Shown here piece by piece: positions 18,379-19,074 of a stretch of DNA of 64,000 nt. The stretch lies in assembly GCF_003334355.1 (NCBI RefSeq), contig NZ_QOWP01000006.1, one strand, 5' to 3'. How positions within the stretch are numbered: the first letter of the stretch is position 1; each line of letters opens with the position of its first letter. A program made the position numbers and the translations under genes. A model generated the notes under the pieces. That model was not told where the DNA came from, ran no database searches, and saw only the letters and a list, made by a program, of their open reading frames with translations. The DNA is from Escherichia coli. GTDB lineage: Bacteria; Pseudomonadota; Gammaproteobacteria; Enterobacterales; Enterobacteriaceae.

Positions 18379-18441
18379 TGGGCGGTATTCTGAAACGGCG
18401 ATTGTCGTGAGAACAGAATGGTTGCACCAGAATACAGATAT

Positions 18442-18478
18442 AAAAAAACCGACATGACAGTCGGTTTTTTTATTTTTT
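18442..18478. terminator. Bidirectional rho-independent terminator (selU on +; candidate sRNA on -)
   Basis: AAAAAAA-ACCGAC-ATGACA-GTCGGT-TTTTTTTATTTTTT; A-tract before and T-tract after the hairpin. Confidence 0.75.
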
Positions 18479-18530
18479 CCGCCCAAGACTTGGTGGTTCC
18501 GGGCAGAAATGAAACAGTCCTCATCTAGCA
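18442..18530 (-). ncRNA. Candidate antitoxin sRNA (~88 nt); its 5' end is antisense to a 16-nt element that recurs in the toxin leader
   Basis: Minus-strand promoter (-35 TTGAAT, 17-bp spacer, -10 TATAAT) puts the start near 18529-18533; transcript begins with the reverse complement of CAGTCCTCATCTAGCA (18515-18530) and ends at the bidirectional terminator. Confidence 0.4.
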
Positions 18531-18535
18531 AGTGA

Positions 18536-18564
18536 ATTATAAGTCAGGATGCCTACATATTCAA
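18536..18564 (-). promoter_or_regulatory. Predicted sigma-70 promoter of the candidate sRNA
   Basis: Minus-strand -35 TTGAAT (18559-18564), 17-bp spacer, perfect -10 TATAAT (18536-18541). Confidence 0.45.
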
Positions 18565-18680
18565 ACAGCTATGTTGGCGATACAATCCCGACGCTAGTAG
18601 TGATACTGCCTCAAGGGATTACCGCAGTGCGGAAAAGTACTTTTAAGTCCTGGTCAGGATACAGGTGGTGCTGATTCTGG

Positions 18681-18689
18681 TGCTCTAAT
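18681..18689 (+). promoter_or_regulatory. Predicted extended -10 promoter (TGcTCTAAT) for the toxin mRNA
   Basis: TGn + TCTAAT on the plus strand; predicted start near 18696, just 5' of the second 16-nt copy (18701-18716). Confidence 0.3.
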
Positions 18690-18789
18690 TTGGAGAGAGG
18701 CAGTCCTCATCTAGCACATGAAGAAAATCATAGTTACAGGCAACGTAAGGGTAAGCTGTGATTGTCTTTCTCCCTTAAGGGAGCAACGG

Positions 18790-18873
18790 ATGAAAACTTT
18801 TCTCGATAAAGTTCTCATCGTTCTTAAGGCGCTAATCGCGCTGCTGGAACTGATCCGTCAGTTTATTGAATAA
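18790..18873 (+). CDS. Candidate type I toxin: 27-aa hydrophobic peptide MKTFLDKVLIVLKALIALLELIRQFIE (DinQ-like)
   Basis: ATG 18790 with AAGGGAG SD 6 nt upstream; SD lies in a CTCCC/GGGAG hairpin; single predicted TM helix; own terminator downstream; core ALIALLELIR recalled as shared with DinQ. Confidence 0.5.
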   Translation: MKTFLDKVLIVLKALIALLELIRQFIE

Positions 18874-18893
18874 CTGAGGAAACGTAGCTAAGG

Positions 18894-18920
18894 CCGAAGG
18901 TTTACCACCTTCGGTCTTTA
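18894..18920 (+). terminator. Terminator of the small toxin ORF
   Basis: CCGAAGGT-TTACC-ACCTTCGG hairpin followed by TCTTTA. Confidence 0.6.
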
Positions 18921-18944
18921 AAAAAACCGACATGACAGTTGGTT
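18920..18944. repeat. Second copy of the 25-nt selU-terminator motif (one mismatch)
   Basis: AAAAAAACCGACATGACAGTTGGTT versus AAAAAAACCGACATGACAGTCGGTT at 18442-18466. Confidence 0.7.
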
Positions 18945-18976
18945 TCATATTTATTGCCAAAATGCACACTGTTCAT

Positions 18977-19074
<98 letters not shown>

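Follow-up and report, generated by a model that had tools for sequence, protein, structure and literature searches.

The dinQ/agrB locus (with agrA), situated in the arsR–gor intergenic region of E. coli K-12, is a type I toxin–antitoxin locus (PMC3567139; PMC5066626). In 2016 its regulation was dissected by Kristiansen et al. by means of SHAPE, S30 in vitro translation and mutations that either destabilised the structure or were compensatory (PMC5066626). The primary (+1) dinQ mRNA is inert, its Shine-Dalgarno (SD) sequence being shut in the “hairpin 3:4” (SL5, C173–G187); in the +44 form, from which 43 nt have been removed at the 5′ end, the upstream element 2 is freed and pairs with element 3, where the anti-SD lies, and the SD opens (PMC5066626). 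AgrB binds element 2 of dinQ, recloses the hairpin and triggers cleavage by RNase III (PMC5066626). A standby mechanism for dinQ was considered not excludable by these authors (PMC5066626), who also described a family of 14 dinQ-like (dql) genes, chromosomal as well as plasmid-borne, and proposed the same mechanism for them (PMC5066626). For the plasmid-borne dqlB/agrB pair of pOXA-48, toxicity and rescue experiments have validated a toxin–antitoxin addiction module (PMC12365149), in which the antitoxin base-pairs with the toxin 5′ UTR, as shown by compensatory mutations (PMC12365149).

Here we analyse a DinQ/Agr module which sits between mnmH and ybbP of E. coli, using a 64,000-nt stretch of one contig (NZ_QOWP01000006.1), hereafter the window. 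Its alignment with the K-12 arsR–gor region shows homology running from the terminator of agr up to and including that of dinQ. Judged by these similarities, the mnmH–ybbP copy is a chromosomal DinQ-family paralogue with its own Agr-like RNA, accessory to dinQ. The perfect palindrome located just upstream of its toxin ORF very probably forms the SD stem-loop in the mRNA of a DinQ-family type I toxin and represents one arm of a dinQ-like four-element RNA switch. The coordinates of all features are collected in Table 1.

The accessory module is about 570 bp in size. Its full form was found in 1,186–1,315 of the 5,426 complete E. coli genomes (~22–24%), and the genomes with the mnmH–ybbP module always have the second, canonical dinQ place as well. 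In strain 214-4 the locus is 100% identical, and its ORF is annotated by PGAP as dinQ. Full-text literature searches returned no paper on a dinQ paralogue at mnmH–ybbP; the gene may figure, possibly as “dqlA”, among the 14 dql genes of Kristiansen 2016.

Table 1. Features of the mnmH–ybbP module (positions in the 64,000-nt window)
Feature	Position	Strand	Basis
Sigma-70-like promoter of the Agr-like RNA, TTGAAT-17-TATAAT	18536–18564	−	Promoter scan, 10/12 matches
AgrB-type antisense sRNA (putative antitoxin), ~90 nt, 5′ end ~18529	18440–18529	−	Rfam RF02891
Terminator hairpin of the Agr-like RNA	18473..18440	−	Terminator scan
Putative −10 TACAAT (18581–86) and transcription start G18593 of the toxin mRNA	18581–18593	+	Homology only
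Element 1, 5′ strand of the S1-like “lock” stem: GCUAG, GUGA, ACUGCCUC	18593–18612	+	Pairs with 18697–18715
Homologue of the dinQ +44 processing site, K-12 CGC/UUUCAAAGUCCUGGUCAG, window UAC/UUUUAAGUCCUGGUCAG; putative cleavage	18641	+	K-12 alignment, coordinates of PMC5066626
Element 2, SD mimic GGAGAGAGGCAGUC (18692–18705) and target of the Agr-like RNA	18692–18715	+	Folds, covariation
Element 3, containing the anti-SD CUCCC (18770–18774)	18760–18774	+	Partner switching in folds, covariation in both helices
Palindrome CTCCCTTAAGGGAG = SD stem-loop CUCCC-UUAA-GGGAG	18770–18783	+	Homologous to dinQ SL5, “hairpin 3:4”
Shine-Dalgarno GGGAG (element 4)	18779–18783	+	6 nt before ATG
Hairpin burying the start codon, counterpart of dinQ SL6 (G194–C215)	18789–18819	+	Folds
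DinQ-family type I toxin ORF, 27 aa, MKTFLDKVLIVLKALIALLELIRQFIE	18790–18873	+	NF041472 match, RefSeq annotation
Probable intrinsic terminator of the toxin mRNA, AAGGCCGAAGGU-uuacc-ACCUUCGGUCUU	18890–18921	+	Inverted repeat I5; present in all folds

The 27-aa ORF matches the NCBIfam profile NF041472 (toxin_DinQ) with 40.9 bits (curated cutoff 30, E = 1.8e-10), and the profile of DqlB (NF041473) gives 24.5 bits with the same peptide, below its cutoff of 35. The 7-residue insertion of DqlB is missing from the window peptide in the peptide alignment, and the ALI-LLELIR core is invariant throughout the family alignment, the window peptide included. In RefSeq the ORF is named dinQ by PGAP (WP_349808740.1). 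At the level of homology, these matches confirm that the ORF is a true type I toxin gene, coding for a peptide of predicted toxicity, and that its antitoxin RNA accompanies it. A previous reading of the letters alone (the sequence-only reading) had already called the small ORF a type I toxin, and the call is upheld both by the NF041472 score and by an adjoining AgrB match. Downstream of the ORF, the putative terminator has a short U tract, like that of K-12 dinQ; the terminator scan made no call at 18890–18921 because the U-run is short.

The AgrB family model of Rfam (RF02891) matches the minus strand at 18440–18528 over its full length (model positions 1–84) with 53.6 bits, the gathering score being 40 (E = 8.8e-8). 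A start placed 7 nt past the Agr promoter corresponds to 18529, in agreement with the start of the Rfam match, and the Agr-like region aligns with agrA and agrB of K-12. The sRNA gene is divergent from the toxin gene, lies 5′ of it and does not overlap it; the putative starts of the two transcripts are ~64 bp apart, versus 81 bp in K-12. Nucleotides 1–24 of the Agr-like RNA can form with 18692–18715 a duplex consisting of 19 bp, one mismatch and 4 bp. For the whole molecules, the predicted duplex with the mRNA has an energy of −78.4 kcal/mol, compared to −46.8 ± 4.1 kcal/mol for shuffled Agr sequences. The direct repeat D2 (18515–36 and 18701–22) also supports the complementarity between Agr and the mRNA. 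In RefSeq the antitoxin RNA at mnmH–ybbP has no annotation, and an antisense RNA relocking the hairpin was missing from the sequence-only reading.

The local sequence around the palindrome reads ...gtctttCTCCCTTAAGGGAGcaacggATGaaa..., where the spacer caacgg (18784–18789) separates GGGAG from the ATG at 18790–18792. Hence the positions that the sequence-only reading gave for the 14-nt palindrome and for an SD placed 6 nt before the ATG agree with the sequence. The pairing of CTCCCTT with AAGGGAG that it proposed is correct in its essence, since the SD is sequestered by an adjacent anti-SD, but only 5 of the 7 palindromic pairs can form in a folded RNA: the hairpin is CUCCC-UUAA-GGGAG with a UUAA tetraloop and a predicted energy of −6.5 to −7.0 kcal/mol. 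Perfect palindromy by itself is within chance expectation, because 5 perfect 14-nt palindromes occur in the 64-kb window versus 5.2 ± 2.2 expected from first-order Markov simulations. Hairpins of 5 bp with a loop of 3–6 nt and GGAG in the 3′ arm are rare, with one per strand in the 64-kb window. The significance of the hairpin is derived from its homology and covariation and not from palindromy as such.

The homology is given by the alignment of the palindrome with the K-12 SL5 region (...CUCCAU-cgc-AUGGAG-aaaacgg-GUG). For the comparative analysis, we collected 7 plasmid loci (by BLAST against plasmids) and 38 chromosomal loci (by a contig scan of species-representative genomes and peptide alignment), representing plasmids as well as Escherichia, Photorhabdus, Xenorhabdus, Pantoea, Citrobacter, Kosakonia, Serratia and Leminorella. 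In 31 of the 33 distinct upstream sequences, the SD belongs to the 3′ arm of a hairpin formed locally (−4.4 to −9.7 kcal/mol), the two lacking a local SD hairpin being Xenorhabdus loci (L034 and L036). Loop length ranges between 3 and 7 nt, and the stems are variable with compensatory changes, while the SD–start spacing and the aacgg-ATG/GTG context are kept across the family. Aligned simply with MAFFT, the 38-nt SD regions had several arms out of register, the window's among them, and core-anchored pseudo-alignments were used instead. In these alignments, which are anchored on the CUCC/GGAG cores and so are fitted to the structure, 80.7% of the SD hairpin cells are paired versus 35–46% after sliding of the 3′ partners by 1–3 columns, and the covariation score is 0.183 versus 0.082 ± 0.021 after shuffling (reached by 0 of 500 shuffles). 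The loop-proximal pair adjoining the CUCC:GGAG core is AU in 9 cases, CG in 3, UA in 3, GU in 1 and UG in 1.

Two other explanations of the palindrome were considered. The palindrome might be a functionless chance occurrence, in accordance with the number of such palindromes in the window and with the modest fold z-score of the segment 18696–18800 (−1.44; 19 of 200 shuffles are equally or more stable). For this segment, proposed as the leader by the sequence-only reading, the hairpin does appear in the minimum free energy (MFE) structure, but the overall stability is unremarkable. However, the palindrome is the positional homologue of an experimentally characterised dinQ hairpin, an SD hairpin is preserved in nearly all family members, and the covariation is higher than in the shuffled controls as well as in the slid ones. 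Because of this homology and covariation, chance is effectively refuted, and we assign it a negligible probability. It is also extremely improbable that the palindrome works as DNA, being an operator for a dimeric regulator or a restriction/modification-type site (CTTAAG) which overlaps the SD incidentally. Although its perfect 7+7 symmetry exceeds the 5 bp usable by the RNA hairpin, both the sequence and the length of the palindrome vary among homologues, and perfect palindromes of this length arise in the window at the chance rate. In addition, the loops range over 3–7 nt, the stems vary with compensation, and several homologous loci (for example, L012, L029 and L035) use G:U pairs, which make sense only in RNA.

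Most likely, the toxin transcript starts near G18593 and has a 197-nt 5′ UTR (194 nt in dinQ). This position is suggested by the similarity of the 100 nt preceding 18696, where elements 1 and 2 lie, to the dinQ UTR, by the spacing of the TACAAT motif and by the pairing GCUAG:CUAGC. The start regions have the same layout: TATGAT-tatcca-G(+1)TTAGC in K-12 and TACAAT-cccgac-GCTAGT in the window. The a/a′ pairing GCUAG:CUAGC (the latter at 18711–15) is a compensatory variant of GUUAG:CUAAC in K-12. In the promoter scan, no plus-strand sigma-70-like site was called for the toxin mRNA, and the −35 region is poor.

Two other starts were considered. The sequence-only reading began the leader at 18696, and in our analysis an extended −10-like motif TGcTCTAAT was recognised by eye at 18681–89; this start was rejected since the 100 nt upstream of it align with the dinQ 5′ UTR, and since such an end would delete the co-varying SD mimic GGAG (18692–95) and thereby remove regulatory elements. 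A start at ~18614, suggested by GATACT (18602–07), was rejected because it loses the a/a′ pairing and the pairing of the element with 18697–18715.

An exact LexA box (CTG-N10-CAG) is absent from 18400–18800, and the position homologous to the K-12 LexA box reads CGA-TACAATCCCG-ACG in the window. For this reason, the label “damage-inducible” is unsupported for the mnmH–ybbP copy.

Within the leader, three competing helices can be compared with those of K-12. The predicted energy of helix 3:4 (the SD hairpin) is −7.0 kcal/mol in the window and −6.2 kcal/mol in K-12. Helix 2:3 is predicted to comprise 14 bp (18692–18705 : 18760–18773) with −22.2 kcal/mol, versus 9 bp with −16.9 kcal/mol in K-12, and helix 1:2 has −17.4 kcal/mol versus −30.4 kcal/mol. 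The element 1 pairing is seen in both MFE and partition-function folds when the 5′ end is set at 18591 or 18593. The potential for this S1 lock (18593–18612 : 18697–18715) is present in the sequence, and its relevance hinges on the putative start at ~18593. In the folds, element 3 has alternative partners, either the SD or element 2.

Partition-function folds were calculated with the 5′ end at 18593 or 18641 and the 3′ end at 18815 or 18926 (values below are given in this order of 3′ ends), and Agr binding was mimicked by blocking 18692–18715. For the primary transcript (5′ end 18593), the probability of the SD hairpin is 0.99/0.72, and that of the 2:3 helix is 0.00; the three core C:G pairs of the hairpin have P ~0.97 or above. 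For the processed-like form (5′ end 18641), the hairpin falls to 0.12/0.27, and the 2:3 helix rises to 0.87/0.66, this range of 0.66–0.87 being that of the anti-SD pairing with element 2 in 5′-shortened transcripts. Blocking of the Agr target in the same form returns the hairpin to 0.95/0.87 and the 2:3 helix to 0.00. Thus, the predicted folding reproduces the three published states of dinQ: primary locked, 5′-shortened switched and Agr-bound relocked. The start codon is predicted to be paired in the full-length folds (G18789–G18792 : C18816–C18819, P ~1.0), as it is in the K-12 dinQ control fold (G194:C215, P 0.98).

We suppose that the module would operate as follows. In the primary transcript, starting at the putative G18593, the segment 18593–18612 would pair with 18697–18715 and occupy the SD mimic GGAGAGAGG (element 2). 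The anti-SD CUCCC (18770–74) would thus be free to close the SD GGGAG (18779–83), and with the start codon held in the 18789–18819 hairpin, the locked primary mRNA would be stable and untranslatable. Loss of ~45–50 nt from the 5′ end, presumably at the homologous site ~18641, would free element 2, which could form with 18760–73 the longer 14-bp helix and pull the anti-SD away from the SD. Finally, the Agr-like RNA (18529 to 18440, minus strand) would pair by its 5′ 24 nt with 18692–18715 and recapture element 2, so that the SD hairpin would re-form and an RNase III substrate would probably be created.

By analogy with K-12 dinQ, we infer that processing, translational inertness and Agr repression also apply to the mnmH–ybbP copy. 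The idea of an inert primary transcript under tight post-transcriptional control, put forward in the sequence-only reading, gains support by analogy from the homology to SL5 (PMC5066626) and from the covariation within the family. The 5′ processing that it anticipated is a part of the dinQ model, but the part expected to be lost is an upstream element and not the CUCCC arm, and the anti-SD would swap to GGAG at 18692–95.

The switch helix was analysed comparatively as well. Element 2, whose SD-mimic GGAG core lies at 18692–95 in the window, usually falls between −97 and −103 relative to the start codon in an ungapped register scan, and a duplex search puts the best upstream partner of the anti-SD region at −98 to −102 in nearly every locus. 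In a fixed register, using 30 distinct sequences in the same kind of core-anchored alignment, 87.7% of the cells of the 2:3 helix are paired versus 38–57% in slid controls. The covariation score is 0.437 versus 0.216 ± 0.022, and cells with double changes number 35 versus 11.7 ± 3.5; in either case 0 of 500 shuffles reach the observed value. A swap control with a free register and the CUCC core excluded does not discriminate (7.70 versus 7.43 pairs); with G:U permitted, pairing between segments rich in purines and segments rich in pyrimidines is promiscuous. The argument for the 2:3 helix therefore rests on the fixed-register test.

In the folds the SD is never well exposed. Its predicted partner in the processed-like forms is another anti-SD, GCUCU (18682–86), and it is unpaired with a probability of only 0.14–0.18; in a scan of 5′ ends, none opens the SD past ~0.22. 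However, in the K-12 control ViennaRNA recovers the +1 dinQ structure but not the published +44 structure as MFE, and the thermodynamic predictions are thus of limited discriminating power. Since the control under-predicts the opening, we interpret the poor predicted exposure of the SD as a limitation of the method, although it could hint at an extra lock in the paralogue.

One may suggest from these folds that the SD hairpin is real but represents a constitutive lock, with translation depending on a standby ribosome (as in tisB), on a second cleavage downstream of ~18687 or on breathing of a weak hairpin, or with the copy being essentially silent. This would correspond to an SD which is at least 82% paired for every 5′ end tested and predicted to be captured by GCUCU in the processed-like forms, to a start codon buried separately (P ~1.0) and to the standby mechanism left possible for dinQ by Kristiansen et al. 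(PMC5066626). We nevertheless find such a lock quite improbable: covariation of the 2:3 helix is seen in different genera and would be expected only with selection for the exchange of partners, and the +44 processing-site context is conserved between K-12 dinQ and the window in the alignment. Furthermore, in K-12 the folding program under-predicts an SD opening which was proven by SHAPE and in vitro translation.

Perhaps, the paralogue has been rewired relative to dinQ through the loss of LexA control and the gain of a double SD lock provided by the second anti-SD GCUCU (18682–86), although we consider this combination rather unlikely. If the double lock were true, the SD would be handed to GCUCU after the first 5′ processing event, and translation would need a further step, for example, another cut beyond ~18687 or a ribosome on standby. 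If the rewiring were true, roughly a quarter of E. coli strains would possess, alongside dinQ, a non-SOS toxin which is triggered differently.

The presented analysis adds no new principle; the mechanism was already published in 2016. It shows that the four-element dinQ switch, with both of its competing helices co-varying, is conserved from E. coli to Photorhabdus and Xenorhabdus as well as on plasmids. In some 1,200–1,300 of the 5,426 complete E. coli genomes, another DinQ-type module exists beside dinQ, and RefSeq labels it “damage-inducible DinQ” despite the lack of a LexA box.

Among the known systems, K-12 dinQ is similar to the window locus in its 27-aa hydrophobic peptide with the ALIALLELIR core, in the divergent upstream Agr sRNA, in the ~195-nt 5′ UTR with elements in identical order and in the terminator with a short U tract. 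The shared order comprises a 5′-end lock (putative in the window, like the start of the UTR), the SD mimic/Agr target ~98 nt before the start, the anti-SD, the SD hairpin and the start-codon hairpin. The two loci differ in their site (mnmH–ybbP versus arsR–gor), in the number of agr genes (one versus the tandem agrA and agrB) and in the LexA box CTG-N10-CAG, which overlaps the K-12 dinQ promoter and has no counterpart in the window. The start codon is ATG in the window and GUG in K-12, and the hairpin is CUCCC-UUAA-GGGAG versus CUCCAU-CGC-AUGGAG. Relative to K-12 dinQ, the window has a longer predicted 2:3 helix and a weaker putative 1:2 lock, and the termini of its peptide (MKTFLDKV..., ...RQFIE) are unlike those of DinQ.

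The dql genes, including dqlB/agrB of the IncX, IncL/M and IncI plasmids, belong to the same family and share with the window the SD-hairpin/SD-mimic architecture, and the C-terminal RQFI(D/E) of the window peptide resembles that of DqlB. However, the DqlB peptides have 31 aa with an AVxAxAN insertion, whereas the window peptide has 27 aa without this insertion and is encoded on the chromosome. The peptides closest to that of the window (VKAFIDTAIIVLKALIALLELIRAFLK, 63–72% identity) are found in the chromosomal DinQ-like loci of Photorhabdus and Xenorhabdus, with which it shares the pattern MK.F.D..IIVLKALIALLELIR. In these loci, the SD hairpin is formed by GCUCC-loop-GGAGC, after which come aaacgg and the start codon; they differ from the window in having an extra closing G:C pair in the hairpin and, often, AGAGCGCG as element 2.

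The tisB/istR-1, shoB/ohsC, zorO/orzO and hok/sok systems are not homologous to the window locus, although tisB, shoB, zorO and hok share its proposed logic: a long structured 5′ UTR, a full-length mRNA which is inert and becomes activated by processing, and an antisense RNA which acts away from the SD. In tisB, a ribosome standby site is used, and the SD is still closed after processing, while hok relies on a 5′–3′ fold-back and on 3′ trimming.

The predicted duplex between the toxin leader of the window and its cognate Agr-like RNA is the strongest of the three considered (-78.4 kcal/mol, versus -69.1 for K-12 AgrA and -63.6 for K-12 AgrB). For the leader (Agr target 18692-18715), AgrA, taken from the K-12 agrA locus (L002 1564-1645), is a somewhat better predicted partner than AgrB. 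In K-12 itself, AgrA does not regulate dinQ. Cross-talk between the canonical and the mnmH-ybbP modules might occur in strains having both.

A LexA box (CTG-N10-CAG) was not found in or around the inferred toxin promoter (18553-18600); the best candidates, such as CTACATATTCAAACAG at 18553, each have an invariant triplet with a mismatch. For the mnmH-ybbP copy, the product name given by RefSeq (“damage-inducible type I toxin DinQ”) is therefore probably a misnomer. An upstream ATG at 18718, in frame with the toxin, opens a 51-aa ORF (MKKIIVTGNVRVSCDCLSPLREQR followed by the toxin), and this longer reading is without family support; the DinQ profile covers its residues 29-50 only. Dql peptides are frequently mis-annotated with long N-termini (Kristiansen et al., PMC5066626).

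A peptide 100% identical to the window toxin is encoded in Escherichia sp. E1V33, which also possesses the canonical dinQ (collected loci L010 and L043). Outside Escherichia, the toxin is closest to peptides of Photorhabdus and Xenorhabdus (L011-L030, 63-72% identity), several of them occurring as two copies per genome, rather than to E. coli DinQ. The loci of Xenorhabdus griffiniae (L034) and Xenorhabdus sp. BG5 (L036) are the sole family members lacking the local CUCC-loop-GGAG hairpin; they carry a U-rich stretch 5' of the SD (AGGAG) and an ACUCU about 30 nt upstream, which may represent a longer-range anti-SD, or the arrangement may differ in these loci. Three short contigs with dinQ or dqlB, assigned to “Lachnospiraceae bacterium” MAGs or to “uncultured bacterium” (L039, L040, and L046), have upstream sequences identical to those of E. 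coli K-12 or enterobacterial plasmids, and most likely represent mis-binned enterobacterial DNA.

At the mnmH-ybbP site, the entire agr-like/dinQ-like module corresponds to an indel of ~570 bp (18388-18960), lying between the stop codon of mnmH and the REP element before ybbP. The “empty” site of E. coli ATCC 25922 has an mnmH-ybbP distance of only 140 bp, and in other strains, e.g., EH01-18-02, ylbG together with IS3 and Rhs remnants is found in place of the module.

Repeats and alternative reading associated with the module
Feature	Position	Location	Description
Direct repeat, upstream copy	18441-18480	flanks module	40 nt, 83% identity between copies; TAAAAAAACCGACATGACAGT[C/T]GGTTT...
Direct repeat, downstream copy	18919-18958	flanks module	as above
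REP-type palindromic elements	18965-19062	between module and ybbP	inverted repeats I1 and I4
51-aa ORF	18718-18873		in frame with toxin
GCUCU	18682-18686	directly 5' of SD mimic	

The upstream copy of the direct repeat constitutes a bidirectional terminator for mnmH and the Agr-like RNA, whereas a degenerate hairpin immediately 3' of the toxin terminator makes up the downstream copy, which could be a scar left by recombination or what remains of a second agr gene. The REP region gave sub-threshold Rfam matches to naRNA4 and ES036, and its REP-type elements explain why megablast found tens of places in each genome.

In 5'-shortened transcripts, GCUCU is predicted to pair with the SD (G18780-C18784; P 0.63-0.94), thereby extending the helix between the SD mimic (element 2) and the anti-SD region past an internal loop. 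In K-12 dinQ, GCUCU is likewise located 5' of element 2, and despite its presence the SD is open by SHAPE (PMC5066626).
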